Numbered from the stretch's first letter, positions 27,593 through 45,540 are shown. The stretch is DNA of 64,000 bases from an uncultured bacterium (GCA_964387845.1 CAYLXA010000005.1:96001-160000); one strand, 5' to 3'. Notes: generated from the letters alone by a model not told the origin. Numbers and translations: made by a program.

Positions 27593-29251
<1,659 letters not shown>

Positions 29252-29264
29252 TCATTAATGTAGT

Positions 29265-29292
29265 AAGGGCGAGGCATGCCTCGCCCTTACAA
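29265..29292 (+). terminator. Perfect GC palindrome between groEL1 and groES. Terminator or attenuator-like, with no T-tract.
   Basis: 'gtaagggcgaggcatgcctcgcccttac'. Confidence 0.35.
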
Positions 29293-29330
29293 ACGAAATC
29301 ATAATCAATCAATTACAGAGGAGCGTTACC

Positions 29331-29621
29331 ATGAAGATAAAACCATTAGGCGATAAAATTCTCGTTGAATTATTGGAAGCCGAAGAGAAAACAAAGGGCG
29401 GAATCATTCTTCCCGATTCGGCAAAAGAAGAAAAGAGCGAAGGCAAAGTCATTTCGGTCGGTCCCGGAAAAGTCCTCGAAAGCGGAAAAGTTCAGCCGCT
29501 CGAGATCAAGAAGGGCGACAAAGTGATTTTCGGCAAATACACCGGCGATGAGTTTGTGATCGACGGCCGCAAGCACAAAATTTTGCGCGAAAGCGAAGTT
29601 TTAGCGGTTTTTGAAGATTAA
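29331..29621 (+). CDS. groES: Co-chaperonin GroES
   Basis: 'MKIKPLGDKILV...GGIILPDSAKEK'. Confidence 0.95.
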   Translation: MKIKPLGDKILVELLEAEEKTKGGIILPDSAKEEKSEGKVISVGPGKVLESGKVQPLEIKKGDKVIFGKYTGDEFVIDGRKHKILRESEVLAVFED

Positions 29622-29629
29622 CCTTCATA

Positions 29630-29700
29630 AATTCAAAATATAAATATCAAAATTCAAAACATCGAACTTTTGATATTTGAAATTTGATATTTGAATTTAA
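29630..29700. repeat. AT-rich palindromic element in the groES-groEL2 spacer
   Basis: 'ttcaaaatataaatatcaaaattcaaaaca' and its inverted partner 'ttttgatatttgaaatttgatatttgaa'. The 27-mer recurs at 44163-44192. Confidence 0.55.
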
Positions 29701-29715
29701 ACTTTGAGGTGTGAT

Positions 29716-31350
29716 ATGCCCGCAAAAGAATTAACTTATTCAGAGGAAGTACGCGCCAAGATTAAAAAAGGCGTCGATATCCTCGCCAAGACCGTCAGTG
29801 TCACCTTGGGGCCGCGCGGCCGCAATGTGGTGCTTGACCGCAAGTTCGGTTCTCCCTTAATCACCAAAGACGGCGTCACCGTCGCGAAAGAAATTGACCT
29901 TGAGGATCCGTATGAAAATATGGGTGCTCAGATGGTCCGCGAAGTGGCTGAGAAAACATCAGATGAAGCCGGTGACGGAACCACCACCGCGACGGTTCTC
30001 GCGCAAGCGATCGTCTCGGAAGGTGTCAAGAATGTCACAGCCGGCGCCAATCCGATGGCCCTTAAGCGCGGAATCGATAAAGCCGCGGCGGCCGTCATTG
30101 AATCCATCAAGAAATTAGCGTCTCCGATTAAAGGCAAAGAAGAAATCAAGGCCATCGCTACGATCAGTGCCAACAACGACAGCGTGATCGGCCAGCTTTT
30201 GTCGGATGCGATGGAAAAAGTCGGCAAAGACGGCGTCATCACGGTCGAAGAATCCAGCACCACCAAGACGGAGCTCGAAGTCGTCGAAGGTATGCAGTTT
30301 GACCGCGGTTACATTTCGCCTTATTTCATCACCGACGCGGACCGGATGGAAGTCGTCCTCAAGGATCCCTTGATTCTCATTTACGAAAAGAAGATTTCTT
30401 CCGTAAAAGAAGTCGCCCCGCTCCTCGAGCAGGTAGTCGGCATTGGAGCGCCGCTTCTATTAATCTGCGAAGAAGTCGAAGGCGAAGCGCTTGCCGTTCT
30501 CGTCGTGAATAAAATCCGCGGAACGTTCCAGGCAGCAGCCATCAAGGCGCCCGGATTCGGCGACCGCAGGAAAGCCATGCTCGAAGACATCGCGATTTTA
30601 ACGGGCGGCAAATTCATTTCCGAAGACATCGGTGTGAAGCTCGAAAATGTGGATCTTTCGATGCTCGGAAAAGCCAAGCGTGTTGTGATCGATAAAGACA
30701 ACACCACGATCATTGACGGCGCCGGTAAAAAAGCGGCCGTGAAAGAGCGTTGTGAACTTATTAAGAAACAAATCGATAAATCAGATTCCAGCTACGACAA
30801 AGAAAAACTCCAGGAACGCCTCGCGAAGCTTTCAGGCGGTGTGGCGTTGATTAAAGTCGGTGCTACGACTGAAACCGAAATGAAAGAGAAAAAAGCGCGC
30901 GTGGAAGATGCGTTTCATGCCACAAAAGCATCCGTCGAAGAAGGTGTGGTCGCGGGAGGCGGTGTGGCGCTCGTTCGTTCATTGAAAGCGCTTGATTCTC
31001 TGAAGCTGGAAGGCGACGAGAAGGTGGGTGCCGAAATCATCCGCCGCGCGATCCAAGAACCGCTCCGTAAGATCGCGTCCAACGCGGGTTTCGATGCGTC
31101 TGTCGTGATCGGCAAGGTTCTGGAAGAGAAGGGCAACTTCGGCTTTAACGCTTATTCAGGCGAATACGGCGACTTAGTGGAGCAGGGAATTATTGATCCT
31201 GCAAAAGTGGTCCGCAAAGCGCTCGAGAATGCGTCAAGCATCGCGGGTTTGATTCTCACCACCGAAACCGGCATCGTCGAAAAGCCGAAAGACAAGGACG
31301 AAGAAAAGTCGAAGAAGAAAAATTCTTCACACGCTGGGCATTCTCATTAA
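29716..31350 (+). CDS. groEL: Chaperonin GroEL, copy 2 (with His-rich tail)
   Basis: A full Cpn60 paralogue. Its C-terminus is '[18 protein letters not shown]' instead of GGM repeats. Start taken at 'MPAKELTY'. Confidence 0.9.
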
Positions 31351-31359
31351 GTTTGATCA

Positions 31360-31392
31360 AGGGACAGTCCCATTTGGGACTGTCCCTTTTTA
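31360..31392 (+). terminator. Rho-independent terminator of groEL2
   Basis: Stem 'agggacagtccca/tgggactgtccct' followed by TTTTT. Confidence 0.8.
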
Positions 31393-31394
31393 CT

Positions 31395-31434
31395 AATGTA
31401 ATAAATTACATTAAATAATGTAATTTATTACATT
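31395..31434. repeat. Perfect 18 nt inverted repeat at the left island boundary
   Basis: 'aatgtaataaattacatt' - 'aaat' - 'aatgtaatttattacatt'. Confidence 0.7.
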
Positions 31435-31453
31435 GATATAATCAGCCTTATTT

Positions 31454-32485
31454 TCAGCTCAAGCCCGCTTCGAACGACAACGTTTCTCGCTTCAATTCCT
31501 TTCGCAATTCTTTTTCCGTAGGCAGGTATAACTTATACTTTGACGCAAAGATTTGCTTACTTCCTTTCGGAAGCGTGTAGCGTACGACCGCTTCCTTCTT
31601 ATCCTCGCACAAAATAAGGCCCACTGTCGGCTGGTCGGTTTTTTGTTTCAACTCGCGGTCATAGTAATTCACATACATTTGCATTTGACCGATGTCTTGA
31701 TGAGTTAGTTTTCCGATTTTCAAATCAATCAGCACAAAGCACCTGAGCAGCGTGTTATAGAAAACCAGATCGATATAGAAATGATCCCCATCAAGTGTGA
31801 TCCTTTTCTGCCGGGCGACAAACGTAAATCCTTTTCCCAGCTCGAGCAAGAACTTGGAAAGATTATCAATCAGCGCTTGCTCCAGTTTGCTTTCATACAG
31901 CTTCGGGTTGGATTCAAGGCCGGTAAATTCCAGAACGTACGGATCTTTAATCATGTCCGTGTAAGTTCGAAGGTCCTGGCCTTTCTTGGCTAATTTGAAG
32001 AGCCCTTTCTTATCTTTGCTTAAAGAAAGCCGTTCAAAAAGCAGGGAACCCTTTTGACGCTCCAATTCCCGGACTGACCAATTGTTTTTGACACATTCAA
32101 TTTCATAAAAGGAGCGTGCCTCCGGTCGTTCGACGCGCATTAAAATCCGGTAATGTGTCCAGCTCAATTCGTGACGCAGTGCGTCACGAATTGGGAAGGT
32201 AAGATAAAACTGACGAATATATCGCAAATTCGAATCATCAAAGCCTCTCCCAAAATCTCTTGTTAGTTTTTCCGAAAGCGACTTCAATAACGTCTCACCG
32301 TAAGTGGCACGTTTTTGGCCTTTTTGTTCTTCTTCCACAATTTCACGGCCGATTAACCAATAGGCCTGCACCATTTCGGTGTTGACGGTACGCGCAATGT
32401 TGGAACGTGCCGATTCTATGATCTGACGGATTTTGGAATAGACTTGGTCTTGCTTTGAGTTTTTCTTTTGAACTTCTTGCGGCAT
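31454..32485 (-). CDS. DUF1016 / YhcG-like PDDEXK nuclease-domain protein
   Basis: '...ARTVNTEMVQAYWLIGREIVEEEQ...' has the YhcG/DUF1016 architecture, with an N-terminal helical part and a C-terminal PD-(D/E)xK-like part. Confidence 0.7.
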   Translation of the reverse strand: MPQEVQKKNSKQDQVYSKIRQIIESARSNIARTVNTEMVQAYWLIGREIVEEEQKGQKRATYGETLLKSLSEKLTRDFGRGFDDSNLRYIRQFYLTFPIRDALRHELSWTHYRILMRVERPEARSFYEIECVKNNWSVRELERQKGSLLFERLSLSKDKKGLFKLAKKGQDLRTYTDMIKDPYVLEFTGLESNPKLYESKLEQALIDNLSKFLLELGKGFTFVARQKRITLDGDHFYIDLVFYNTLLRCFVLIDLKIGKLTHQDIGQMQMYVNYYDRELKQKTDQPTVGLILCEDKKEAVVRYTLPKGSKQIFASKYKLYLPTEKELRKELKRETLSFEAGLS

Positions 32486-32814
32486 GAGTAATTTGCCCTC
32501 CCTTTTTTGGTAGCCCTTCCGCCTTTTGGCTTCAGGACGATGCTTCTAACTGCGTGAAGCATCGGGCAAATCACTTAATGTGGTGTCTTTATGCGATGAT
32601 CGCAACCCTGTCCCAGCGCCACTTTGAAACAAAAACTTGTTTCTAATCAAAGCGCTGGACTGGACTCATTTCCTATAGACCGAACGGTTCCATTAATGAA
32701 AATGAGTCCTGGTACTGCTTGATGCGAGAGTGAAGGATATCATATGTCCGGTCCGTATCAAAATGATTTTTTTCAGTTAAATTAATCCCGAAAGGGTATA
32801 TTTTATTAATTCGA

Positions 32815-32918
32815 GTTAAATATTATACCTTATAAGGTATAATATTTTTAAATTATACCAAAAAAGGTATAATATTTTACTAAAGTAGTTGATATTATAC
32901 CCTTAATGGTATACTATT
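32815..32918 (+). promoter_or_regulatory. Three TATACC-N5/6-GGTATA operator palindromes upstream of hipB
   Basis: 'tataccttataaggtata', 'tataccaaaaaaggtata' and 'tatacccttaatggtata'. The third overlaps the first in-frame ATG. Confidence 0.6.
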
Positions 32919-32923
32919 CTGCC

Positions 32924-33145
32924 ATGGATTACATTGGAGAAGAAATTCAAAATTTGCGTAAAAGAGCAGGGCTCACTCAACGAGAATTCGCGAAGCGAGT
33001 GGGTGTGGGGCTTAGATTTATTCGTGATCTTGAACAAGGAAAATCTACCGTACGGCTTGATAAGGTAAATCAGGTGCTTGAATTTTTAGGGCATCATTTG
33101 GAGATTGTTGCCAACCGTGAACGAAAAAATATTCAGAAAAGCTAG
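32924..33145 (+). CDS. hipB: XRE-family HTH protein, HipB-like
   Basis: 'LRKRAGLTQREFAKRVGVGLRFIRDLEQGK' is a Cro/C1-type HTH. It is the first gene of a three-gene hip operon. Confidence 0.75.
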   Translation: MDYIGEEIQNLRKRAGLTQREFAKRVGVGLRFIRDLEQGKSTVRLDKVNQVLEFLGHHLEIVANRERKNIQKS

Positions 33146-33461
33146 AGTTAACTACAAAGATGAACTTGCCGGTTATTTACAAGAAACCGAGAATGGTTTT
33201 CAATTTCTGTATGATGAAAATTATTTGCGTTCCGGCGGACAGCCAATTTCTGTGTCACTTCCTTTAACGAATGAGCCTTACGAATCAAAAGAGCTTTTTA
33301 GTTTCTTCCGCGGACTTTTGCCGGAAGGTTGGTACCTCGATATCGTGAGTGCGGCTAAGAAAATCGATACCAATGATTCTTTCGGCCTGCTTCTGGCTAC
33401 CACAGGCGACACGATCGGCGCAGTGACCGTATATCCAATCCGGGAAAGCGATGAGTCCTAA
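33117..33461 (+). CDS. hipS: HipS-like protein (stand-alone HipA N-terminal subdomain)
   Basis: About 115 aa, similar to HipA N-terminal subdomain 1. The start is uncertain (GTG at 33117 or TTG at 33105). It overlaps the next gene by 11 nt. Confidence 0.6.
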   Translation: MNEKIFRKARVNYKDELAGYLQETENGFQFLYDENYLRSGGQPISVSLPLTNEPYESKELFSFFRGLLPEGWYLDIVSAAKKIDTNDSFGLLLATTGDTIGAVTVYPIRESDES

Positions 33462-34311
33462 TCTGTTTGAAGAAATGTTTGGCACGAGCGAAGCTCCTAC
33501 AATCCCACTTTCGTTGAAGGATGTTCCTCTTCAAGCGCAAGTGATGGCGGGGTATATGTCCATTTCAGGGGTGCAGCCAAAATTGGTGCTGAAATTGGAT
33601 AAGCGTAAAAATGAGCTGACGGTGGCTCAGACGGATGGTGAATATATTTTAAAACCGCAAATCCCGCATTTCCCCCAGACGCCCGAAAATGAAAACTGCT
33701 GTATGGATATCGCTCAGGCGTTTGAGATTGAGGTGCCGCCCCATTGCCTTCTTCCACTGAAAGACGGAAGCCTGGCTTATGCGGTGAAGCGTTTCGATCG
33801 TGTGAGCGGCGAAAAAATCAATCAAGAAAGCTTTTATCAAATTCTTGAAAAAAGAGACAAATATATGGGCTCTCTGGAACAAATCGGTAACAGCCTGAAA
33901 CAAATTTCCGTAGTGCCGGGCCTGGATGTTCAGCTTTTCTTTGAATTAGTCGTTTTCAATTTTCTGATCGGCAATGGTGACGCGCATTTTAAAAATTACT
34001 CCATTTCTTATTTAAAGGATGGCATCCGGCTTTCTCCGGCCTATGATCTGGTTTGTTCCAAGCTGGTGATTCCGGGCGATTCGGATTCCGCACTCACGAT
34101 CAATGGCAAGAAGAATAATCTTAGGCGGGGCGATTTTGATGTGTTGGCTGCTTATTTAAAAATTCCGGAAAAGGTTCGTTACGATAAGTTTGCAGGTCAG
34201 CTTGGAAAAATGGAGCAATTGATTCGAGCCAGCCAACTCTCGGCAGATTTTAAAAAGACGTTTATTCAAATAGTTTCTTCACGTTTTGATCGGCTTAAAT
34301 TGGTGAATTAA
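33451..34311 (+). CDS. hipT: HipT-like Ser/Thr kinase toxin (HipA C-terminal kinase domain)
   Basis: 'LIGNGDAHFKNYSI' is the catalytic motif and 'SPAYDLVCS' is also present. At 286 aa it lacks the HipA N-terminal subdomain, which is supplied separately. Confidence 0.7.
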   Translation: MSPNLFEEMFGTSEAPTIPLSLKDVPLQAQVMAGYMSISGVQPKLVLKLDKRKNELTVAQTDGEYILKPQIPHFPQTPENENCCMDIAQAFEIEVPPHCLLPLKDGSLAYAVKRFDRVSGEKINQESFYQILEKRDKYMGSLEQIGNSLKQISVVPGLDVQLFFELVVFNFLIGNGDAHFKNYSISYLKDGIRLSPAYDLVCSKLVIPGDSDSALTINGKKNNLRRGDFDVLAAYLKIPEKVRYDKFAGQLGKMEQLIRASQLSADFKKTFIQIVSSRFDRLKLVN

Positions 34312-34480
34312 GCGCGCTGAGCCCGGCACGATTAGAACAGGTACCAAAACATTACAAAGTAGTTAATCTAATTTCCTTATATTCACAGTTAAAATATGTA
34401 TATTTATATACATATATATGTATTGAATAGTACATTTATATGTATATAATAATACATATTATATTTGACATTAACACTTT

Positions 34481-34909
34481 TTGAGGGTAGATTTTCTCGT
34501 ACCGGAGGAAGCTGAATATACTAGATTAGTCAAATTTATGACCGCGGCCGGCTATAAACAAGTGACAGGCTATGGTTGGCAGAAAAAAGGAGAGGCAATC
34601 ATTTTTGATCTTTATGTCGGTAATTCGGTTTATTCAACGGAATTATTGTCATCGCCGCTTGAAAAAGGCGGCCATCAGAAATTGAAGGAATGGAATAAAA
34701 TTTATTTAGGTGCTTTAAATCCGGTAGATCTGATTATTTCAAAAATGTTTCGCGGCAGCGAAGTGGATGTCCAGGACAGTTTAGCGTTACTCAAGCATGA
34801 GAAAATTAGTATTGAGGAATTAAAGAAACGATACATCAAAACAGCCAAATATGATGTAAGCGAAGACAGGGTATTGAAAAATTTAGATACATTACTCAGG
34901 AGGCTTTAA
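34481..34909 (+). CDS. Hypothetical protein, first gene of an uncharacterised two-gene module
   Basis: The ORF begins at a TTG, with an alternative ATG at 34538. An AT-rich palindromic promoter region lies upstream. No confident family was assigned. Confidence 0.5.
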   Translation: MRVDFLVPEEAEYTRLVKFMTAAGYKQVTGYGWQKKGEAIIFDLYVGNSVYSTELLSSPLEKGGHQKLKEWNKIYLGALNPVDLIISKMFRGSEVDVQDSLALLKHEKISIEELKKRYIKTAKYDVSEDRVLKNLDTLLRRL

Positions 34910-34911
34910 TC

Positions 34912-35583
34912 ATGGATAAAAGTGATTTGTTGGACCAATTGGCTCAGCATGGCTATTCATTGATGAAGCCAAAATCAGCCGAGCCGGCCGAAAAACTGCT
35001 GGAGGCATTGCTGAAGCAGGATGATGCGCGTCTTTTGGAGGGCTTTCCGGTGGTGTTGGCCAACGCGTTTGACCAAAAAGACGGCTTGACGTGGGAAAAT
35101 CCTAAATGGAATGCTGAGGAATGGCAGGGAAAAAACAGAAGAAAATTGGTGGCCATGCTGTCTTTTAGTTATTATTTGTTTCGTTTATTTGGATTGGCGG
35201 AGTCTGAAAAGAAAGTTTTAGATTTGGTCAAGAAATTAAAAGGGGATAAAACGCTTCTTCATTTAACCGAATCTTTTGCGGAGTCCAAAGAAGTAGACTT
35301 GGACGGTGTCTCGCTATCAACGGAAAGATTAAAAAGCGCTTTCCGCCAATATGTATTAACGTCGGATCAAGGCGACGAAGTCGAAAAAAAGAAACGCGCG
35401 TTGGAATTAGAGCTGCTGCTTTCCGAACTGTTCAGCACGCGGCAAAAAGAACTGCTTGAGAAGCGGCTTGGTGGGGAGGAATTCACCAAAACAGAGCGTG
35501 AATACTATTACCGCGTCGTCAAAAAACGCTTGAAAGCGCTCGCGAGTGACGAACTTCACCAGATGGCCCGTTCGTTGGTTTAG
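34912..35583 (+). CDS. Hypothetical protein, second gene of the two-gene module
   Basis: It starts 3 nt after the upstream gene. The C-terminal 'RQKELLEKRLGGEEFTKTEREYYYRVVKKRLKAL' looks helix-turn-helix-like. Confidence 0.55.
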   Translation: MDKSDLLDQLAQHGYSLMKPKSAEPAEKLLEALLKQDDARLLEGFPVVLANAFDQKDGLTWENPKWNAEEWQGKNRRKLVAMLSFSYYLFRLFGLAESEKKVLDLVKKLKGDKTLLHLTESFAESKEVDLDGVSLSTERLKSAFRQYVLTSDQGDEVEKKKRALELELLLSELFSTRQKELLEKRLGGEEFTKTEREYYYRVVKKRLKALASDELHQMARSLV

Positions 35584-35595
35584 GGCGGGGGGTGT

Positions 35596-35633
35596 GGCTT
35601 GAAGCTTGAAGCTTGTAGCCTGCAGCCCACAAT
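35596..35633. repeat. REP-like repeat, copy B
   Basis: 'ggcttgaagcttgaagcttgtagcctgcagcc'. Confidence 0.6.
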
Positions 35634-36020
35634 CCTATCCGCCGAGCCTTACCCCTTACCCCTAAGTTTCAATCTGGACACAAAGCTTTTTGAGGCATAA
35701 ATCCTACTTAAATTGTGCCTGTACCTGTCCACCAAAATGATGCCTGGCACCTTTCTGTTAAGGATTCATATGCAACTCCTTTTTCCTGTAACATCAGGAT
35801 ATCAGGTGTTGCACTAGTAACTTGAACTCAAGCAGGTACCGAAGTAGAAATCCACTTCCTATCCGCTATACGTTGTTCGCGAACCAATAAAATAGTTGTT
35901 GAAATATAATATAAAGATTGTAAAATAATTACCTCACGCAAACAGTAAACCCCTCTCACGCCTTCACGCGCAAAATCAAACTAATTTCGTAATGCGTTCA
36001 CAAGAAAGGCGGATTTGCCA

Positions 36021-36809
36021 ATGAAAAAAGAAAAACTCATTTCTCAGAGGGATGGTTTACCAATTCGTTCAAGCGGTCCTTGGATCCGCAAAAAACATCA
36101 CTATTTAATCAGATATGCTGACATATTTACCCGAGGGATGAAGAACAAATGGGAATTGACGTACCTTGATCTTTTTGCCGGGCCCGGATGCTGCTTAATT
36201 GAGAAAGAGATGATCGAATTAGCCGGATCTCCGTTACTTGCATTAGGTTTTGATTTTAGGAAATACATTTTTATTGAACAGGATCATGATGACCTTGAAG
36301 CATTGAAACAGCGGTGCTCAAAATCACCAAAACTAAGCCAGATTCAATTCATAGAAGGGGATTGTAATAAGAATATTGATCAAATTCGATTGACGGGATT
36401 AACGCTGGCTTTTATCGATCCAACTGGTATTGACGTTCATTTTGAAACGATTAAACGACTCACCTCTTTAGGGCCGGTGGACCTGCTAATAAACATACCA
36501 TTTCACATTGATATCAAGCGCAACTTCACGAAGTATATAAAAACCCAACATAAAAAATTGGATCTCTTTCTTGGCGGTAAGGTACCGTGGGATAAATTGC
36601 ATCAAGAAAGGGATGTTTTAGAGTTATACAAAAAGCGAATAAAGGATTTGGGGTATCAAACCGTAGAATACAGCGACATAGTTGTCAGTAATACAAACAA
36701 AGTTCCTATGTACTTTCTTTTCTTTGCGTCCAAGCATTCGCGTGGTGTAGAATTCTGGAAGAAAATTACCAAGAAAGACGAAACCGGACAACTGGAGTTA
36801 GAACTCTAA
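36021..36809 (+). CDS. Three-Cys-motif partner protein TcmP family (MTase-like fold)
   Basis: '[11 protein letters not shown]' resembles SAM-binding motif I. 'FIDPTG' sits in the place of a DPPY-like motif. The gene is adjacent to a Gp37/Gp68 (DUF5131) gene, which is the defining context of TcmP. Confidence 0.6.
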
Positions 36810-36811
36810 GA

Positions 36812-37570
36812 ATGAGCGATAAATCAAATATCGAATGGACCGACGCGACATGGAATCCGGTAACGGGATGCAATAAAATCAGCCCCGGATGTAAAAACTG
36901 CTACGCCGAAACTTTCGCTGAGCGCTGGCGGGGAATTCCGGGCCATCCCTACGAACAGGGTTTTGACCTCAGATTATGGCCTGAGCGTGTCGGCTTGCCA
37001 TTATCGTGGAAAGAGCCGCGGATGATTTTTGTCAATTCCATGTCTGATCTTTTTCATAAAGATGTTCCGGATGACTTTATAGGGAAAGTATTTGAAACGA
37101 TGCTCAAAGCTAATCAGCATACTTTCCAGGTTCTGACCAAGCGGCCTGAGCGCATGGTTGAATGGACCAAGAAAACATTCGGCAATCAAAAATTACCGCG
37201 TCATATCTGGCTTGGTGTTTCGGTTGAAAACCAGGATTACGTATGGCGAATCATGTATCTTCAGCAAACACCGGCTCAAATCCGTTTTCTTTCGGTTGAG
37301 CCTCTTTTGGGGCCTGTTGTTTTAAAATCTTCAAATTTAAAAGGCATTCATTGGGTGATCGTGGGTGGCGAGAGCGGACACAGAGCCCGTCCTATGAATC
37401 CCGACTGGGCGCGTGATATCCGCAATCAATGCGAAAAATATGGCGTCGCTTTTTTCTTCAAACAATGGGGCGCTTTTAACGCGAAAGGCGAACGCGTTGG
37501 TAAAAAAGCCGCCGGCCGGGTTCTCGACCGCAGAACCTGGAACGAAATGCCAATTACAATCCCCGCCTAG
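36812..37570 (+). CDS. Phage Gp37/Gp68 family protein (DUF5131), three-Cys motif
   Basis: The N-terminus '[27 protein letters not shown]' is the family signature and includes a CX6CX2C motif. Confidence 0.7.
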
Positions 37571-37596
37571 AATCCATCTCTCGTGGTTTAAACGAG

Positions 37597-37625
37597 AAGC
37601 TTGTAGCCTGTAGCTTGCAGCTTAT
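37597..37625. repeat. REP-like repeat, copy C
   Basis: 'gaagcttgtagcctgtagcttgcagc'. Confidence 0.55.
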
Positions 37626-37744
37626 CATCATGATATAATTCCTATCGCGACGGCGCCCACATTGACCGCCGCGTGATGGCACTTGCGCCAGCGTTACCGC
37701 AGGTGCCTGCGAACGAAGTGACGCAGAATAAAGCGCAAGTGTCT

Positions 37745-38092
37745 ATGTCCGACATCAAGAAACTCACCGAAAAGATCAAGCAATTCCGCGACGAACGGGA
37801 TTGGAAGCAATTCCACAACCACAAAGATATGGCACTTTCACTTGTTCTTGAAGCCGCTGAACTTTTAGAACATTTCCAGTGGAAAACATTGGATGAAGTT
37901 GAAAAGCACGTGAAAACCTCAAAAGAGGATGTTTCAGATGAGCTTGGCGATGTCGCGATCTATCTTTTCGAGCTCGCCGATAACTTAGGGATAGACCTAT
38001 CAGAAGCGGTAGAAAGCAAGCTTCTTAAGAATGCCAGAAAATATCCTATACAAAAATCTAAAGGCACCATAACCAAGTACAATCAATTGTAA
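37745..38092 (+). CDS. MazG-like nucleotide pyrophosphohydrolase (all-alpha NTP-PPase)
   Basis: 'ERDWKQFHNHKDMALSLVLEAAELLEHFQWK...ELGDVAIYLFELAD' is the MazG/dCTPase-like EExxE/D signature. Confidence 0.7.
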   Translation: MSDIKKLTEKIKQFRDERDWKQFHNHKDMALSLVLEAAELLEHFQWKTLDEVEKHVKTSKEDVSDELGDVAIYLFELADNLGIDLSEAVESKLLKNARKYPIQKSKGTITKYNQL

Positions 38093-38099
38093 AGATTAA

Positions 38100-38876
38100 A
38101 TGCCCGGCAATGAATCTGCAGTAATAAAGTATTTGTTCAGAAATAAGAATCGTCTCGAGTTACCTCATTTAGGTTTAATAAAATCAATTGGGTTTCCAAA
38201 TGGACTCACAAATAACTACAAAGAAATAAAAAATGAAAATGAAATTTTAGAATGTTGCTCAGACAATGCTCGAAAAAAAGCAGATGTCTATATTAATGGG
38301 CAAGGCGTATCAATAAAACAATCAGGAGGAAGTTTTTCTTTTAATCGTTTGCAGCGTGCCGAGTTAATAGAAGTTTTTGCTAGTTTAATTTTTGATGCCC
38401 CTCATAATGTTTTAACTCAATTAGATAAAGAAGTTGAAAAATTTCATTTTGGAAAATTATCAGGACGTGGTAGGCCGTGGAAAGATTTTTTCTCAAATAA
38501 AGAATTTTATGCTTTAACAAATGCTCTTATGATGTTGCAATCTCCAAATTATGGACTTTCTCTTCATCCCGCTAAATTTATTCTGGAGGCTTCAAAAAAT
38601 TTAACAACCAATCCGAGTTTAAAAGTTTATACTTTTGATGAATATTTTGAACGTTATAACGAGTTTTTCAGGATTGCTATAAGACGTGTTTGGTTGGGGC
38701 AGAATAGTAAATCTGAGCATGGCCGTGCAAAAAGTCTAATAGCAAAACCTGAGAATGCAACCTGGGTCTTTAATACAATTTCCGGAACGCCAAGAAGTGG
38801 TTGGAAAGTTGATTTTCCAAAGTCGGAAAGAAGAACTGTGTATTATTTGATGATAGAAAAAGTAAATTCAAAATGA
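38100..38876 (+). CDS. Hypothetical protein, putative type II restriction endonuclease by context
   Basis: Very AT-rich, with no family recognised. It directly precedes vsr and overlaps it by 4 nt, upstream of the dcm-type methyltransferase. Confidence 0.4.
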   Translation: MPGNESAVIKYLFRNKNRLELPHLGLIKSIGFPNGLTNNYKEIKNENEILECCSDNARKKADVYINGQGVSIKQSGGSFSFNRLQRAELIEVFASLIFDAPHNVLTQLDKEVEKFHFGKLSGRGRPWKDFFSNKEFYALTNALMMLQSPNYGLSLHPAKFILEASKNLTTNPSLKVYTFDEYFERYNEFFRIAIRRVWLGQNSKSEHGRAKSLIAKPENATWVFNTISGTPRSGWKVDFPKSERRTVYYLMIEKVNSK

Positions 38877-39301
38877 CATTTGTATTTCAAACGACAAGTC
38901 AACGCTCCGAGTTAATGAAAAAGATTAAAGGAGTTAACACTAAGCCAGAAATTGCTTTTGCAAAGAAACTTGAATTATACAAAGTCAAGTTTAGAAAACA
39001 TTTTAAAAAACTCCCTGGAGTACCGGATTTTGCTATTTTGAGAGGTAGAGTAGCGGTGTTTATCGATGGGGAGTTTTGGCATGGATACAATTGGGTTAAT
39101 AAAAAGAAAAGGATAAGATCCAACCGACAATACTGGATTAAAAAAATAGAAAGAAATATACTAAGAGATTCGATAAATATGAGAGAATTAAAGAAAATAG
39201 GTTGGTATCCTTTAAGATTTTGGCAGCATGAAGTTGTTGCTGAGGGTGATAAATGTATAAAGAAAATCGAAAAAATAATGCAGCGACGAAGTTCAAAATA
39301 G
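38873..39301 (+). CDS. vsr: Very-short-patch-repair endonuclease
   Basis: 'KPEIAFAKKL...PGVPDFAILRGRVAVFIDGEFWHG'. Confidence 0.85.
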   Translation: MTFVFQTTSQRSELMKKIKGVNTKPEIAFAKKLELYKVKFRKHFKKLPGVPDFAILRGRVAVFIDGEFWHGYNWVNKKKRIRSNRQYWIKKIERNILRDSINMRELKKIGWYPLRFWQHEVVAEGDKCIKKIEKIMQRRSSK

Positions 39302-40383
39302 CATCTTTTTTTGCTGGCTGTGGCGGCCTAGATTTAGGTTTCCAGCAAGCGGGCTTTGATGTTGTTTGGGCAAATGAATACGATAAAACAATTTGGGCTA
39401 CCTACGAACACAACCATCCTCATACGTTTTTATGCAAGAAATCTATTATCGATGTCAAATCAGATGAAATTCCAACTGTTGTTGGCATGATAGGTGGCCC
39501 GCCATGCCAAAGCTGGAGTTTAGCCGGAGCCATGAGGGGAGTAAAAGACCCGCGAGGTAAACTTTTTTATGAATACATAAGAATCTTGGCCGATAAACAA
39601 CCATCATTTTTCTTAGCCGAAAATGTTGCGGGCATTGTTTCTAGCACTCATGTGAATTCATTTGAAAATATCCTTAAAAAATTCGAAGAAATTGGTTACG
39701 TTACTTCATATAAATTGCTTGATGCAAAATCCTACGGCGTTCCTCAGGATCGGAAAAGAGTTATCATTGTAGGGTATTCTAAAGGTTTACATAAGAAATT
39801 TGAATTCCCGCAAGAAACTCATGGTGTAAATTCAGCGAATGGCGACTTATTCAAGCCACATTTAAAACCCTATGAAACTTTACGCTCTGCAATTGACGAT
39901 TTGCCTAATCCGGTGCCTGCTAGTTTGAAAAATAAGTCGAACAGCAGAATTCGTATTCCAAATCACGAATATATGACAGGAGGTTTTTCTACCATTTACA
40001 TGTCACGAAATAGGAGAAGAAATTGGAATGAGCCTTCATTTACAATTCAGGCGGGAGGCCGGCATGCACCGCTACATCCATCAAGCACTGAAATGATTAA
40101 AAAAGAGCCAGATTGGTGGGTATTTAAAAAGAAAGACAAAAAGGCTTATCGGCGAATGTCGGTAAGAGAATGCGCACGAGTTCAAACCTTCCCTGATAAA
40201 TTCATATTCAAATATGATTCAATTGCGGATGGTTATAAAATGGTTGGTAATGCAGTTCCCGTCGAGTTGGCGCGTGTTATAGCATTAAGAATAAAGTCAG
40301 ATTTGATACCAGAGAAAAATAATCTTAAAAGATCATCCCTTCGCAAAACACCCTATTCCGAATTGGTGTTAGCTTCCTCATAA
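39253..40383 (+). CDS. dcm: DNA (cytosine-5)-methyltransferase
   Basis: Motif I 'FAGCGGLDLGF', motif IV 'GGPPCQSWS' and 'ENV'. The start is uncertain and overlaps the vsr 3' end. Confidence 0.9.
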   Translation: MYKENRKNNAATKFKIASFFAGCGGLDLGFQQAGFDVVWANEYDKTIWATYEHNHPHTFLCKKSIIDVKSDEIPTVVGMIGGPPCQSWSLAGAMRGVKDPRGKLFYEYIRILADKQPSFFLAENVAGIVSSTHVNSFENILKKFEEIGYVTSYKLLDAKSYGVPQDRKRVIIVGYSKGLHKKFEFPQETHGVNSANGDLFKPHLKPYETLRSAIDDLPNPVPASLKNKSNSRIRIPNHEYMTGGFSTIYMSRNRRRNWNEPSFTIQAGGRHAPLHPSSTEMIKKEPDWWVFKKKDKKAYRRMSVRECARVQTFPDKFIFKYDSIADGYKMVGNAVPVELARVIALRIKSDLIPEKNNLKRSSLRKTPYSELVLASS

Positions 40384-40424
40384 ACCGTAAACTGGACACC
40401 GTCCGGCAGAAAAAAGGTTGTTGA

Positions 40425-41540
40425 ATGAGGCAAATATTCATAGTAGTGGCAGGAGGCAATGCTGCTGCTGATCGTCACTTCGAAGATACAATCCAACGTA
40501 AACGTACCTTAGATGAAGTGCGGCAATTTCTATCTTCCCAAGAAATTCATGAGATCGAATCAGTTTATCATACAGCACCTTTTATTGTCTGGGGCGCTAT
40601 TCCCGGCCCAATGAATATTCCGCGTTGGCAAAGTATGCGTGTTGGCGATATTGTTTTGATTTACACAAGAGGACATATCCGATTAATTGGCGAAGTGGCA
40701 TCAAAAGTAAGAAGTAATTCGTTGGCTCGCTATTTTTGGAAAGAAACACCCGAAAACAAAACCTGGGAATTGATTTATTTTATTGTAAATGAACAAAGGG
40801 TAAATATACCGATGCCTTTATTAAATGAAGCGCTTGGTTATAGCGCAAGTTACTCTCCGAGGGGATTTAGTTCTGTCGATTCTGATAAGGTCAAATCATT
40901 CGTTAATCGTTATGGCGATATATTCGAAGGGCTTAAAACACTCAGTAAAGGCGAGAAACTAATCGAAATTTCGCCAGCGAAAAAGTTAGAAGTCCAACAG
41001 GTTGAAGAAAAGATTGAACAATCATCGAATGAGCATGACGAAATGCAATGGCGGTTAATTAGATTGGGCAAATTGTCAAGGTACGATGTTTGGGTTCCCA
41101 GAAATGATCAAGGGCACAGCTTTGGAGGTCAACGATTTCGGGATTTTGTGTTGCCGGAATTCCACGAGAGTTTAGATGTTCCACCCAGTATTAAAAATAT
41201 CGATGTCGTGTGGAAATTTGGTCCTTATTCGATCACATCTGCATTTGAAGTCGAACATTCAACATCCGTTTATTCAGGAATTTTAAGGCTTTCGGATCTG
41301 AGAACCGAAACACCGAATTCACAATACCCACTTTTTATTGTTGCTGACGAAGCAAGAAAGCGGAAGGTATTTTCGGAACTTGCGCGCCCCACTTTCTCAA
41401 ATCCCTTTTTGCGACTTCACGAAGTAATACGATTTTTGAGTTACGAAAGAATCAGGGACATTGATGAAAAGTATAAGCAAGAACCTGAATTTGAACCGCA
41501 AATACTCTTTACTGCCGGAGAAACTTTCGAGAAAAATTAA
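40425..41540 (+). CDS. PUA/EVE-like N-terminal domain fused to a putative PD-(D/E)xK nuclease. Candidate modification-dependent (type IV-like) restriction enzyme.
   Basis: The N-terminus 'VGDIVLIYTRGHIRLIGEV' is EVE/PUA-like. The C-terminus 'IDVVWKFGP...AFEVEHS' is (D/E)xK-like. Confidence 0.5.
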   Translation: MRQIFIVVAGGNAAADRHFEDTIQRKRTLDEVRQFLSSQEIHEIESVYHTAPFIVWGAIPGPMNIPRWQSMRVGDIVLIYTRGHIRLIGEVASKVRSNSLARYFWKETPENKTWELIYFIVNEQRVNIPMPLLNEALGYSASYSPRGFSSVDSDKVKSFVNRYGDIFEGLKTLSKGEKLIEISPAKKLEVQQVEEKIEQSSNEHDEMQWRLIRLGKLSRYDVWVPRNDQGHSFGGQRFRDFVLPEFHESLDVPPSIKNIDVVWKFGPYSITSAFEVEHSTSVYSGILRLSDLRTETPNSQYPLFIVADEARKRKVFSELARPTFSNPFLRLHEVIRFLSYERIRDIDEKYKQEPEFEPQILFTAGETFEKN

Positions 41541-41558
41541 CAAATCGAGGATCTTATC

Positions 41559-41711
41559 ATGATTAAATCAAGAAAATTGAAGGCTGATCTAACCCAGTTA
41601 TTAAATTATCTTTGGCATGACGAGAGAAAACATTATTTGGAGCGGCGAAACAAGAATCATATTTATTTAACAATTCGCAGATTGGCAAAAGAAATTAGTT
41701 ATAAGCCGTAA
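41559..41711 (+). CDS. Small ORF (50 aa), hypothetical
   Basis: 'MIKSRKLKADLTQLLNYLWHDERKHYLERRNKNHIYLTIRRLAKEISYKP'. It is too short for the ORF track and has no family assignment. Confidence 0.2.
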   Translation: MIKSRKLKADLTQLLNYLWHDERKHYLERRNKNHIYLTIRRLAKEISYKP

Positions 41712-41745
41712 ATCGAACGCGTCTCGACGATGTGCGGAAGATATT

Positions 41746-41822
41746 CATTAACCCTCGATAAAAAGAAACTCCTCGCGGAATTCGCGCCCGAGCCCCGCGC
41801 CCACAAATTTCTTGATTTCCAT
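41746..41822. repeat. ~77 bp direct repeat, copy 1 (upstream of the NTase-HEPN pair)
   Basis: 'cattaaccctcgataaaaagaaactcctcgcggaattcgcgcccgagccccgcgcccacaaatttcttgatttccat' is ~90% identical to 43032-43106. Confidence 0.8.
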
Positions 41823-41936
41823 TATAGGGGTAAGGATTAAGGGGTAAGTCGTAAGTTTTAAGTAGAATTATGCTGATAGTCATACCCCATCCCTCCTAAA
41901 CATTCCCCTTGAACATGTTGTAGTTATGTACTACAA

Positions 41937-42533
41937 TTGTTGTACATCATGACAACAAGTTTAATCTTTCAGCTCCAGCAAACCAAGTCGCCGCTCAGGA
42001 AGAAGCTTTTATCGTACTTCTTCACGAATCCCGGGGCGAAGCTCTATCTCAGAGATATCGCGCTCAAACTCCATGTCGATCCCGCGAATCTTTCGCGCGA
42101 GCTCAAGCGGCTCACCGATGAAAGTGTTTTTGTTGCCCAGAAGCAGGGTAATCTCAAATATTTCTCTTTGAATCCAAAGCACGCCTTATATGAAGAATTT
42201 AAGTCCATGATTTTTAAGACCATCGGCGCTCAAGGCGCGATTGAAAACCTGTTAAGTAAAATCCCGGGAATTAAACGCGCTTTTATTTATGGTTCGTTTG
42301 CCAAAAATACGGAGCGTGCGGATTCCGATATCGACCTTTGTATGATCATCCAAAAAAAAGAATTCAAAGAAAATCCTTTCCTTGAGGGAATTCATAAACT
42401 CGAAGGTGAACTTGGCAGGGAAATCAATTATACTTTCTTTACCGACGAAGAATGGCAGTCCAAGCAGCGATCTAAAGATAGCTTTGTCACCGGAATTCTT
42501 AAGAATAAAAAAATCGATCTCATGCATATATGA
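41937..42533 (+). CDS. wHTH-fused minimal nucleotidyltransferase (MNT-like)
   Basis: The N-terminal HTH 'LYLRDIALKLHVDPANLSRELKRL' and the NTase motif 'IYGSFAKN...DSDIDLCMI'. Confidence 0.7.
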   Translation: MLYIMTTSLIFQLQQTKSPLRKKLLSYFFTNPGAKLYLRDIALKLHVDPANLSRELKRLTDESVFVAQKQGNLKYFSLNPKHALYEEFKSMIFKTIGAQGAIENLLSKIPGIKRAFIYGSFAKNTERADSDIDLCMIIQKKEFKENPFLEGIHKLEGELGREINYTFFTDEEWQSKQRSKDSFVTGILKNKKIDLMHI

Positions 42534-42994
42534 AAAAAATTGATCTTCAAGATTTAATTCAAGAAGGGCAGCTTCAAGAAGAGCCAGGTATCGGCTGGGA
42601 CCAGGTGGAGCGTTTAATTAAACGGGCATTTGAAGATTTGAAATCAGCCGACCGGAACATGTCCTTTGATGAGCCGGGCGCGATGGATTTTATCTATAAG
42701 GCGATGTTTCATGCTGGGAACGCTTTGATTCGTTCATATGGGTTTAGGCCGGGCGCTACCAGACAGCATCAAGGTGTGATTACGGCAGTTGGGCGGATCT
42801 TGGGCGTTGAATCAAAGGCGCTGATTCTGAAATTTGATAAACTCAGGAAACGCCGCAATGAGTTTGAATATCAGGGCATTTTTGCGATGGGAAGAGAAGA
42901 GTTGAAAGATTCCATCGAACAAGCCAAACAATTGGTTGGCGTGATACGAAAAGCACTCGAAGATTCTCATCCACAAAAGCAGTTTAAATGGTAA
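42530..42994 (+). CDS. HEPN-like protein partnered with the NTase
   Basis: An all-alpha ~150 aa protein overlapping the NTase gene by 4 nt. It carries 'RKRRNEFEY' where the Rx4-6H motif would sit, but the His is not evident. Confidence 0.5.
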   Translation: MKKIDLQDLIQEGQLQEEPGIGWDQVERLIKRAFEDLKSADRNMSFDEPGAMDFIYKAMFHAGNALIRSYGFRPGATRQHQGVITAVGRILGVESKALILKFDKLRKRRNEFEYQGIFAMGREELKDSIEQAKQLVGVIRKALEDSHPQKQFKW

Positions 42995-43031
42995 GCGAAG
43001 ACCATAAAGACGGCGCCGGGCACCTGCTACT

Positions 43032-43106
43032 CATTAACACTCGATAAAAAGAAGCTCCTCGCGGAATTCGCGACGAACCCCGCGCCCACAAATTTCTTGA
43101 TCTCCA
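43032..43106. repeat. ~77 bp direct repeat, copy 2 (upstream of higBA)
   Basis: 'cattaacactcgataaaaagaagctcctcgcggaattcgcgacgaaccccgcgcccacaaatttcttgatctccat'. Confidence 0.8.
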
Positions 43107-43315
43107 TCAAAGTTATATATACTATTCACCATAGTAAATAAGCATTAACCCCCTCCTCGCTCAAAGTATTAAATTCTCCAAGCTTCCTCCACATAAAGTC
43201 TCTTTTTTCACTTGCGCTTTATGCGCAAGTACCATCTCTCGAGGCTCAAAGTTAGCCTCGTATTGCTAGGCCGCGTAAACTATGGTTGACACTGTGTAGC
43301 ATATAGGGTACACTT

Positions 43316-43645
43316 ATGATGACTTGGAAAATTTTGCATTACCGGAGGCGCGACGGAAGGATTCCTTTCCAAGAATGGTTTTCCGAATTTTACGATGCTC
43401 GGGTTTGCGCTAGAATTCAATCACGGATTCACAGGTTAGAGCGTGGTAACTTTGGAGATTCAAAGAGCGTAGGTGATGGGCTCTTCGAGTTACGATTTCA
43501 CTTTGGGCCCGGCTATCGCATTTATTATGGAATTCGTCACGGCCGGATTGTTATTTTGCTTTGCGGGGGCGACAAAAGTAGTCAGCAAAAAGATATTCAA
43601 ATAGCAAACGTATATTGGCAGGATTATTTGGAGAGTCAACTATGA
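43316..43645 (+). CDS. higB: RelE/ParE-superfamily toxin, HigB-like addiction-module killer protein
   Basis: 'WKILHYRRRDGRIPFQEWF...GDGLFELRFHFGPGYRIYYG'. Confidence 0.8.
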   Translation: MMTWKILHYRRRDGRIPFQEWFSEFYDARVCARIQSRIHRLERGNFGDSKSVGDGLFELRFHFGPGYRIYYGIRHGRIVILLCGGDKSSQQKDIQIANVYWQDYLESQL

Positions 43646-43953
43646 GACGATATAAACCGTATGTAGATCATCAGGAATGGTTGTTGAAATCATTAAAGGA
43701 TCCTGAGATGGCTTCTGAATATCTAAATGCCGTGCTAGAAGAGGGTGATAAGCAATTATTTTTGATGGCACTCAAAAATGTGGTGGACGCGCAAGGTGGG
43801 ATGACAAAGATGTCGGATAAATCTAAAATCAATCGTGTGAGCCTTTACAAAATGCTCTCAAAGAACGGAAACCCCGGCTTTGAAAATATTTTGAGATTAC
43901 TTCAAATTGCCGGCATTCGTTTTCGGGTGACACCGCAATCTCGTAGGAAATAA
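43642..43953 (+). CDS. higA: HigA-family addiction-module antidote protein (HTH)
   Basis: 'LNAVLEEGDKQLFLMALKNVVDAQGGMTKMSDKSKINRVSLYKMLS'. It overlaps the higB stop (ATGA). Confidence 0.8.
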   Translation: MRRYKPYVDHQEWLLKSLKDPEMASEYLNAVLEEGDKQLFLMALKNVVDAQGGMTKMSDKSKINRVSLYKMLSKNGNPGFENILRLLQIAGIRFRVTPQSRRK

Positions 43954-43965
43954 TTGCTGCACACT

Positions 43966-44046
43966 CACGCTTGATGCGTGAGTGCTAAATCCGTAGAGAA
44001 ACCACAAGTTTCTCACGGATAATACTTGCACATAGGTGCAAGTGCA
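43966..44046. repeat. Three consecutive hairpins at the right island boundary
   Basis: 'cactcacgc-ttgat-gcgtgagtg', 'atccgtagagaaac-cacaa-gtttctcacggat' and 'cttgcac-atag-gtgcaag'. Confidence 0.5.
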
Positions 44047-44060
44047 TCCGCGCGGCGTGG

Positions 44061-44089
44061 TTGACAATCCACACCTAATTCTGTATGAT
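44061..44089 (+). promoter_or_regulatory. Sigma-70-like promoter (TTGACA, 17 nt spacer, TATGAT)
   Basis: 'ttgacaatccacacctaattctgtatgat'. Confidence 0.4.
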
Positions 44090-44159
44090 ACTTCATCGGT
44101 GCACGAAGTATTGAATTACAGATGTAAAACCCACCGATTAGTTCAATTAATCCAAGTAA

Positions 44160-44285
44160 AAATTCAAAATCTAAATATCAAAATTCAAAACAATTATTAA
44201 ATTCCAAATTCAAAACGTTTTGAAATTTAATATTTGTAATTTGAATTTGTTTTATGTTTTGATATTTGAATTTTGAAATTATATT
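44160..44285. repeat. AT-rich palindromic element upstream of the guaB-like gene
   Basis: It contains 'ttcaaaatctaaatatcaaaattcaaaaca', which shares a 27-mer with 29632-29661, plus inverted copies. Confidence 0.55.
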
Positions 44286-44297
44286 TGAGGAGCAAAA

Positions 44298-45458
44298 ATG
44301 AGCGAGTGGATCGGACGAGATAGAAAAGCAAGGCGTGCATACGGTTTTGATGAAATTGCGTTGTCCCCCGGAAATCTGACCATTAATCCCGACGAAGTTG
44401 ACATCAGTTTTTATATCGATAAAAAGAAATTCGAAATTCCGTTTATTGCCTCCGCGATGGACGGTGTGGTGGATCCTAAGTTCGCGGTCGCGATGGGCAA
44501 AATGGGCGGCCTCGCGGTGCTTAATCTCGAAGGCATCTACACCCGCTACGACAATTATCAAGAAATCTTAGACGATATTGCCAAAGCCACGCCTGAAAAA
44601 GCCACTGAGCTGGTTCAGAAACTCTACGTGGAACCGGTCAAAGAAAAACTAATCTCAAAACGCATTCAGGAAATCAAGAAAGCCAAAGTACCTGCCGCTG
44701 TGAGTTCCATTCCGCAAAAAGCGGAGAAGTACGGCAAAATCGCCGAAGAAGCCGGCTGTGATGTGTTTGTGGTTCAATCGACCGTCACCACGGTTCGCCA
44801 CATCGCGAAAGCGTACAAAACCCTCGAATTCGAAAAGTTCTGCAAAGCGATGAAGATTCCCGTCATTCTCGGAAATTCCGTGACGTATCAAGTGGCGGTT
44901 GAACTCATGACGGCCGGCGCGGACGGACTCTTAGTCGGCATCGGTCCGGGATCGGCTTGCACGACCCGCGGCGTGTTGGGCCTCGGTGTTCCGCAGGTGA
45001 CCGCGATTTGTGATTCCGCAGCCGCGCGCGAATTTTATTACAAAAAGTCAGGACGCTACGTTCCGATCATCGCAGACGGCGGTATGTCCACGGGCGGCGA
45101 TATTTGCAAAGCATTCGCTTGCGGATCTGATGCCGTGATGGTGGGTTCCGCTTTTGCCCGCGCCAAGGAAGCGCCGGGGAAGGGATTCCATTGGGGCATG
45201 GCCACACCGCACGCCAATTTGCCGCGCGGCACACGCATTCGCGTCGGCACGACGGGAACTTTGCAGGAAATTATGTTCGGCCCCGCGAAATTGGATGACG
45301 GCACGCAAAATTTAGTCGGCGCACTTAAAACCTGCATGGGCAACATCGGCGCCCGCACGGTCAAGGAAATGCAAATGGCCGAAATCGTGATTGCGCCTGC
45401 GATTAAAACGGAAGGAAAGCTCTTTCAAGCGGCTCAAAAAGTTGGAATGATGAAATAA
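44298..45458 (+). CDS. IMP dehydrogenase / GMP reductase family protein without a CBS subdomain (GuaB3-like)
   Basis: '[15 protein letters not shown]' is the catalytic Cys loop, and the TIM barrel is of IMPDH type. The gene is immediately upstream of guaA. Confidence 0.8.
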
Positions 45459-45469
45459 CTTAATATTCG

Positions 45470-45540
45470 GGCTTCATGCTGCATGCTACAAGTTACAAGC
45501 TGCAGGTTTGAAGCTTGGAGCCTGAAGCCTGTAGCTTTGA
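45470..45540. repeat. REP-like repeat, copy D
   Basis: 'gcttcatgctgcatgctacaagttacaagctgcaggtttgaagcttggagcctgaagcctgtagc'. Confidence 0.55.

Follow-up and report, generated by a model that had tools for sequence, protein, structure and literature searches.

Results

A block of accessory genes separates groEL2 from guaB3

The window, a stretch of 64,000 nucleotides from an uncultured bacterium (GCA_964387845.1 CAYLXA010000005.1:96001-160000), contains the genes groEL1-groES-groEL2 (27611-31350), followed by a variable block and then by guaB3-guaA-dnaE. The block spans positions 31355-43951 and holds about 20 accessory genes on 12.6 kb. In database comparisons, the GuaB3-like protein (44298-45458) has its closest relatives exclusively in metagenome-assembled genomes of Candidatus Omnitrophota. 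In agreement with an earlier note on this DNA, which had described an accessory block inserted between groEL2 and a guaB-like gene, related genomes show the two genes adjacent or separated by other cargo, and the observation of an island is confirmed. The block likely represents horizontally acquired cargo in a variable slot between the core genes groEL2 and guaB3 of one genus-level Candidatus Omnitrophota lineage. The features of the locus are collected in Table 1.

A separate Logan assembly (run SRR15237813) contains two contigs, each 100% identical to the window. The first links groEL2 to the gene of a 223-aa protein, the second links TcmP to dnaE, and the gap between both is just a 25-nt break (35789-35813) in the intergenic region between the 223-aa gene and TcmP. 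Hence, the block is physically linked to both the groEL2 and the guaB3 side. Besides this break, which occurs in the same population, contigs of the lineage of the congener L081 (L numbers denote related loci) begin only 76 nt upstream of guaB3 (L255/L256). These breaks may reflect repeats or heterogeneity of the population at junctions within the block and at its border.

Both borders of the variable DNA are sharp. Homology to L081 and to the sister-lineage locus L165 ends at 31350-31354, at most 4 nt from the groEL2 stop codon, and resumes at 43952, right behind the HigA stop codon (43951-43953). The insertion formerly placed at 31395-44150 thus stands, while its right limit has to be moved to the HigA stop codon, where the variable DNA ends. 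At the left edge, the perfect inverted repeat reported earlier is present; it consists of two tandem palindromes, which together form a hairpin with a calculated RNA folding energy (dG) of -18.5 kcal/mol (z -7.2), with the sequence TGaTATAAT next to it (31434-31442). The idea that the boundary palindromes are att-like sites found no support: the left one occurs just once in the window and is missing from the first 160 related loci, among them that of the closest congener, L081, and it has no counterpart at the right end. Its tandem design with a 22-nt period is the same as in the operator-like arrays before hipB and the DUF6036 pair, and, with low confidence, we regard it as an orphan promoter-operator or an antisense promoter rather than an att site.

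At the right edge, the three hairpins described earlier (43955-44050; dG -45.5, z -8.0) and the promoter are also present, and the hairpins, like the left inverted repeat, fold far better than shuffled sequence. As hairpins, promoter and leader are conserved in relatives with other cargo, they are part of the core DNA that precedes guaB3 and do not mark an end of the island. The guaB3 promoter and the leader stem are invariant in the window, L081 (9755-9831), L001 (2390-2460), L082 (9860-9930) and L165 (4350-4490); the stem lacks covariation because it never varies. The leader loop ranges from ~12 to ~90 nt and in L165 holds a two-hairpin element, termed A-B (see below); the leader has no match in Rfam. 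An Rfam scan of positions 31000-44400 at E <= 1 gave only matches below the gathering threshold, attributable to hairpins or low complexity.

Table 1. Features of the groEL2/guaB3 locus, with window positions; values after profile names are E values.
Feature	Position	Strand	Remarks
groEL2 intrinsic terminator hairpin	31361-31393	+	within the variable DNA, at its very edge; terminator stems differ in relatives
Two tandem 20-nt palindromes	31394-31435		TAATGTAAT-NN-ATTACATTA, 22-nt period; together a hairpin with a 19-bp perfect stem
DUF1016/YhcG PD-(D/E)xK nuclease	31454-32485	-	PF06250 2e-60; PF17761 3e-47; PADLOC candidate PDC-S02 1e-151
Three palindromes TATACC-N6-GGTATA	32822-32920		overlap promoter-like hexamers; presumed HipB operators
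hipB-hipS-hipT operon	32906-34311	+	tripartite toxin-antitoxin; hipB 32906-33145, hipS 33105-33461, hipT 33451-34311
Palindrome array, 22-nt period	34390-34464		ATATGTATAT..ATATACATAT; overlaps TTGACA-17-TAGATT; presumed operator of the DUF6036 pair
DUF6036 nucleotidyltransferase-like protein	34481-34909	+	PF19502 3.6e-6
223-aa partner of the DUF6036 protein	34912-35583	+	no profile match
TcmP; DUF5131	36015-36809; 36812-37570	+	TIGR04474 1e-39; PF07505 2e-104; PADLOC candidate pair PDC-M41/M30
MazG-like nucleotide pyrophosphohydrolase	37673-38092	+	PF12643 7.5e-21; phrog_3301
Type II restriction-modification block	38100-41540	+	very low GC3, 0.22-0.34
258-aa protein, HinP1I/MspI-like endonuclease	38100-38876	+	
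Vsr	38873-39301	+	
C5 methyltransferase (Dcm)	39253-40383	+	
371-aa nuclease	40425-41540	+	C-terminal NmeDI_C domain (precomputed Pfam); match to PADLOC type II endonuclease model
Truncated 5' fragment of a SRAP (SOS-response-associated peptidase) gene	41730-41837	+	start MCGRYSLT; contains copy 1 of the 88-nt repeat (41743-41830)
HTH-MNT nucleotidyltransferase; HEPN	41937-42533; 42530-42994	+	PADLOC candidate PDC-M05: PDC-M05A 3e-44, PDC-M05B 9e-16
88-nt repeat, copy 2	43028-43113	+	start codon lost, 1-nt indel
Two-hairpin mini-element A-B	43210-43260	+	dG -23.6, z -6.2
higB; higA	43316-43645; 43615-43953	+	RelE/ParE-family toxin; HI1420-type antidote
Hairpins A2, C, D	43960-44046	+	conserved upstream of guaB3 in L081; core side
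guaB3 promoter and leader stem	44061-44140	+	TTGACA-17-TATGAT (44061-44089); ATCGGTG...CACCGAT; core DNA
Heptamer tandem repeats outside the island	17628-17665; 21069-21099; 45509-45535; 47105-47131; 47200-47229		
Heptamer tandem repeats inside the island	35597; 35647; 37598; 41826		

The slot is empty or filled with unrelated cargo in relatives

The locus L006 has the synteny of the window on both sides, groEL1-groES-groEL2 and guaB3-guaA-dnaE being separated by 190 bp, and in at least 15 more distant Omnitrophota groEL lies directly upstream of guaB3 with a gap of 180-320 bp. These empty slots indicate that the adjacency of groEL and guaB3 is ancestral. In the sister lineage (L164/L165/L166), with amino-acid identities of 99% for GroEL2, 100% for GuaB3, 98% for GuaA and 95% for DnaE at a nucleotide identity of 86-93%, the slot holds a 3.4 kb insert encoding a PF06189 5'-nucleotidase-like protein (PADLOC PDC-S08, E 2e-131), a 449-aa protein, and a toxin-antitoxin pair of a 90-aa and a CopG-type protein. 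The 449-aa protein (L165 2186-3535), which has no Pfam or PADLOC match, adjoins the PDC-S08 gene and is a candidate partner in an uncharacterized defense system. The congener L081 (GuaB3 97%) has a 1.5 kb insert that encodes SoFic (E 6e-111), and L168 (GuaB3 84%) a 4.3 kb insert with an ECF sigma factor, small partners of it, and a glycoamylase. None of the island proteins of the window recurs in the inserts of L164/L165, L081 or L168. Four lineages with the same flanks thus contain four unrelated cargos, and many other lineages are empty; the groEL contig L167 is an assembly oddity and was uninformative.

Only few close relatives are available, which leaves some room for the block being ancestral and deleted elsewhere. 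The fact that many independent lineages are empty, that the occupied relatives hold non-homologous genes rather than subsets of the block, and that its composition is foreign (see below) makes such a history extremely unlikely. The comparison with relatives that the earlier note had called for therefore supports an island: close relatives do not carry the same genes in the slot, and the composition, when measured, is different.

The block is foreign and heterogeneous in composition

As previously noted, the block is more AT-rich than its surroundings, with a GC content of 0.410 compared to 0.490 and 0.486 in the two flanks (0.488 combined; 13 island versus 51 flank 1-kb windows, Mann-Whitney p = 1e-7). 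Elsewhere in the window, every 12.6 kb stretch has a GC content of at least 0.480. The tetranucleotide distance to the flanks is ca. two to three times higher inside the block and maximal at 38-42 kb. The region at 38.1-39.3 kb, rightly singled out before as very AT-rich, is the lowest-GC part, with a gene GC of about 0.33. At third codon positions (GC3), values of 0.22-0.34 in the restriction-modification block and of 0.34-0.52 in the other modules compare with about 0.59-0.60 in groEL1, groEL2, guaB3, guaA and dnaE, and a sharp compositional step is seen at ~38095, 7 nt after the MazG stop codon. The composition of the block is hence both foreign and heterogeneous, and the GC3 differences between modules indicate that it was acquired in more than one step.

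At least eight self-contained modules form a mosaic

The genes were called by profile searches with Pfam, NCBIfam, PADLOC and PHROGs, which agree almost item by item with the gene list proposed before (DUF1016, hipBST, an unknown pair, TcmP/DUF5131, MazG, Vsr-Dcm, NTase/HEPN and HigBA). The block is a mosaic of at least eight self-contained modules. They comprise four toxin-antitoxin or toxin-antitoxin-like pairs, a type II restriction-modification system that includes Vsr and an additional nuclease, three candidate defense systems by PADLOC, and MazG. Several intergenic regions before modules carry promoter-like hexamers or palindromic operator-like repeats.

The hipBST operon matches HTH_3/couple_hipB, Couple_hipA (2e-25) and HipA_C (1e-45). 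Its genes are in the order hipB-hipS-hipT, with the HipA N-terminal subdomain separate as HipS and the kinase core as HipT. The motifs SISGVQPK and GDAHFKN, which we take to be the Gly-rich loop and the catalytic motif, are visible in the protein sequences. The genes of DUF1016 and hipB are divergent and 420 nt apart; the part of this spacer at 32486-32800 contains several nested inverted repeats, such as TTTGCCC...GGGCAAA, GATGCTTC...GAAGCATC and CCAGCGC..GCGCTGG, with no match in Rfam. Downstream, the DUF6036 protein and its 223-aa partner, for which nothing was found in Pfam, NCBIfam, PADLOC, PHROGs or PDB, may form a putative, uncharacterized two-gene toxin-antitoxin-like module.

Relatives of the DUF5131 protein are encoded on at least 595 viral stretches, with TcmP adjacent in 17 of the best 80 viral loci; this frequent occurrence on viral contigs indicates that the module is mobile in general. 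The viral (IMG/VR) contig L179 carries a hipB-hipS-hipT homologue (574-1850) less than 3 kb from a DUF5131 gene (4001-4717), so that two of the module types of the island can travel together on phage-like DNA. A repeat bracketing TcmP/DUF5131 (35599 / 37587) was considered as an insertion scar and ruled out, as it consists of heptamer tandem arrays that are found across the intergenic regions of the window.

The restriction-modification block contains a C5 methyltransferase, a Vsr endonuclease and a protein with a cognate endonuclease fold. This 258-aa protein, entered in the earlier note as a restriction endonuclease with a question mark, has a HinP1I/MspI-like restriction endonuclease fold (AlphaFold2 pLDDT 92.4 with an alignment of 38 sequences). 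It belongs to an unannotated family of ~250-aa hypothetical proteins without Pfam domain from Omnitrophota, Bacillus, cyanobacteria and others, and a Bacillus cereus homologue adjoins a C5 methyltransferase gene. Family, model and the neighbor in B. cereus together identify 38100-41540 as a type II restriction-modification operon that also includes Vsr and another nuclease. HinP1I, MspI and HhaI, which are partnered by C5 methyltransferases, are monomeric restriction endonucleases of type IIP; the 258-aa protein shares at most 15% sequence identity with them and lies outside every Pfam family, and, in contrast to their systems, a second nuclease of the NmeDI_C type follows the methyltransferase here. 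For this 371-aa nuclease the former label "EVE" was not borne out: no EVE/PUA-like domain was matched in Pfam even at E <= 10, and the nuclease part is NmeDI_C. A single-sequence AlphaFold2 model was unusable (pLDDT 33).

Two modules lie nearest to guaB3. The HTH-MNT/HEPN pair resembles, as judged from its sequence, a type VII toxin-antitoxin system: Pfam NTP_transf_2 and HEPN are above thresholds, while NCBIfam MntA reaches 34 bits and stays under its 60-bit cut-off. In the HEPN protein the sequence RRNEFEY is present, and an Rx4-6H motif is not evident. In the higBA pair the toxin is located upstream of the HTH antidote, and both proteins exceed the cut-offs of their models (TIGR02683, 116 bits, cut-off 62.9; TIGR02684, 55.7 bits, cut-off 53.7).

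Repeats bracket the modules nearest to guaB3

An 88-nt direct repeat with ~90% identical copies (41743-41830 and 43028-43113) brackets the MNT/HEPN pair. Copy 1 reads as the N-terminus of a SRAP protein (Pfam SRAP E 0.029, profile positions 1-21; BLASTP 13/19 identity to the N-terminus of the L002 SRAP), and the repeat is therefore most likely a gene-fragment scar. It is not notably structured (z -0.5 and -2.3), and exact searches found no copy in viral contigs. L002 itself, with a full SRAP gene upstream, was considered as an occupied hotspot and discarded, as by the look of its sequences (oxidoreductase-like and pilin-like ORFs) it is ordinary chromosome.

In the A-B mini-element, hairpin A has the form ACTTGCGC-TTTAT-GCGCAAGT and hairpin B the form CGAGGCT..AGCCTCG. 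Hairpin A occurs in two copies that flank higBA, and the changes in its stem are compensatory (TG..CA vs CA..TG). Since a homologue of A-B sits within the guaB3 leader loop of L165, the unit behaves as a small insertional element. Hairpin A ends in GAGTGCTAA and was checked as a CIRCE element, which was ruled out, since the register of the left arm is wrong and neither L081 nor L165 conserves the motif. The repeats near MNT/HEPN and higBA are either marks of module insertion or independent insertions of mini-elements.

No mobility genes were found

In line with the earlier note, Pfam and NCBIfam searches detected no integrase or transposase domain in the 20 ORFs, and the window contains no tRNA. 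The ends of the island share no repeat (alignment score 14, shuffle mean 13.8), and att-like repeats between the junctions of the window and L081 do not exceed the shuffle background. When the whole island was compared with plasmid and phage collections at near identity, nothing matched, and exact look-ups of the island proteins matched same-population contigs only. Likewise, no integrase remnant was seen in intergenic DNA, in a screen limited to three stop-free stretches (>= 30 aa) from IG1 and IG3. The block is not self-mobile and has no machinery of its own.

Two origins had been offered for the island, an old, decayed integrative element or a hotspot that accumulates defense cargo. The second is borne out by the four cargos and the many empty sites. 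A single old integrative element whose integrase and att sites were lost, for instance a genomic island or a prophage remnant, would account for the GC content below that of the host, for the TcmP/DUF5131 pair common on viral contigs, and for the short direct repeats inside the block. It would not be expected to show strong GC3 differences among its modules or ORFs that are intact rather than decayed; neither the ORFs nor the three intergenic stretches of the limited screen contain an integrase fragment, the ends share nothing, a tRNA is missing, and the inserts of three other occupied relatives (the L165 lineage, L081 and L168) are also devoid of integrases. We consider this origin very improbable.

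Integron-like capture raises a different set of arguments. Here the block would be an integrase-less integron-like cassette array (CALIN), or an array built by a recombinase encoded elsewhere, with the SRAP-derived repeats and the A hairpins as recombination sites. Like integron arrays and CALINs, the locus has co-oriented small modules (19 of the 20 genes have the same orientation), is rich in toxin-antitoxin pairs, and shows structured DNA or repeats in some of the gaps between modules; both modules nearest guaB3 are bracketed by direct repeats, and hairpin A, whose pairing is kept by compensatory changes, lies at different positions in sister genomes. However, the block has no IntI or other recombinase and the flanking genes no IntI domain. 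On inspection, the hairpins proved to be short stems with perfect pairing that lack the RYYYAAC/GTTRRRY (R''/R') boxes of attC sites, and the 88-nt repeat is largely unstructured, as shown above. The modules are multi-gene, in several intergenic regions there are separate promoter-like sites or operator-like palindromic repeats, and the repeat flanking TcmP/DUF5131 is merely a host-type heptamer array that is present outside the island, too. This reading is thus unlikely. Equally doubtful is the broader notion that an enzyme with its gene elsewhere in the genome brings in cargo as cassettes, using short DNA with structure or repeats at the border near guaB3; the A-B/A-C-D hairpin elements and the 88-nt SRAP-5' repeat, which bracket higBA and MNT/HEPN, would be the candidate sites. 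If true, it would mean an uncharacterized cassette-capture system of Omnitrophota without an integrase in cis.

Heptamer repeats inside and outside the island

Heptanucleotide tandem repeats of 3-5 copies with varied units fill many intergenic regions of the window. They resemble the STRR sequences of cyanobacteria and seem to be a trait of the whole genome in this Omnitrophota lineage. As these host-type repeats also occur in intergenic regions of the island, it has apparently resided there long enough to pick up host features. AT-rich long hairpins at 29620-29710 and 44150-44292, directly upstream of the ribosome-binding sites of groEL2 and guaB3, are formed by inverted heptamer arrays, (TTCAAAA)n and (TTTGAAA)n, with dG values of -20.6 (groEL2) and -33.9 kcal/mol (guaB3) and z of -4.9 and -6.1. 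At the spot before the guaB3 ribosome-binding site, relatives differ in sequence or lack sequence altogether. These hairpins could serve translation control, in the case of groEL2 for instance as an RNA thermometer, or simply be filler made of repeats.

Discussion

The same core flanks enclose empty sites in relatives and non-homologous cargo in close relatives, and, with the exception of L168, the cargo is rich in defense and toxin-antitoxin genes; that of the window is unlike the host in composition. For acquired cargo in a core-flanked slot, whole cargos would probably be swapped when DNA is taken up and undergoes homologous recombination within the conserved flanking genes, and single modules would probably be added locally. 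Toxin-antitoxin and restriction-modification modules penalize their own loss and may thereby keep the block in place and enlarging.

Several points weigh against this explanation. Neither a recombination tract nor a donor was identified, and the identities of the flanking genes show no discontinuity and are uninformative. The divergence of guaA was considered as a recombination tract and ruled out, as guaA is fast-evolving in every pair compared. The occupied relatives number only four, all from metagenomes, and the slot is not exclusive to defense, as one of them (L168) has non-defense cargo. The repeats on either side of MNT/HEPN and of higBA could have been left behind by site-specific insertion through a recombinase whose gene lies elsewhere. 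Finally, several module labels are PADLOC candidate systems only, and the defense roles are predicted from sequence.

The locus fits the known class of core-flanked defense hotspots, as a new example that leaves the concept of defense islands unchanged. To our knowledge, such hotspots have so far been described mainly in Proteobacteria. At the core defense hotspots cDHS1 and cDHS2 of Pseudomonas aeruginosa, constant core genes likewise surround a hypervariable region of lower GC whose defense content varies between close isolates, and mobile genes are undetectable in 29% and 47% of the sites, respectively (Johnson et al. 2023, PMC10250203). However, cDHS1 and cDHS2 lie next to a tRNA or tmRNA gene and extend to 168-224 kb (PMC10250203). 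The groEL2/guaB3 slot has no tRNA and inserts of 0-12.6 kb; its host is an uncultivated Omnitrophota, and four occupied states are known. Hotspot #37 of Escherichia coli is also a core-flanked slot with diverse defense systems, 68% of its occupied sites being without detectable mobile element (Hochhauser et al. 2023, PMC10121019). Most E. coli hotspots hold recognizable prophages, satellites, integrative conjugative elements or transposons, and many islands of #37 keep integrase genes (PMC10121019); the block described here contains none of these. In contrast to integrons and CALINs, the block lacks an integron integrase and, as judged by inspection, attC-type sites, and it consists of multi-gene modules, several with promoter-like sites or operator-like repeats of their own.

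Beyond the hotspot itself, the additional interest of the locus is modest and lies in the repeat-bracketed modules near guaB3 and several uncharacterized proteins. It provides a clean hotspot example in Candidatus Omnitrophota, an uncultivated phylum that is new for this class. The groEL2/guaB3 pair is an anchor for pulling variable cargo from metagenomes and mining it for new defense genes, with the DUF6036 and 223-aa pair, the 449-aa protein of the sister lineage, and the unannotated HinP1I/MspI-like endonuclease family as candidates.

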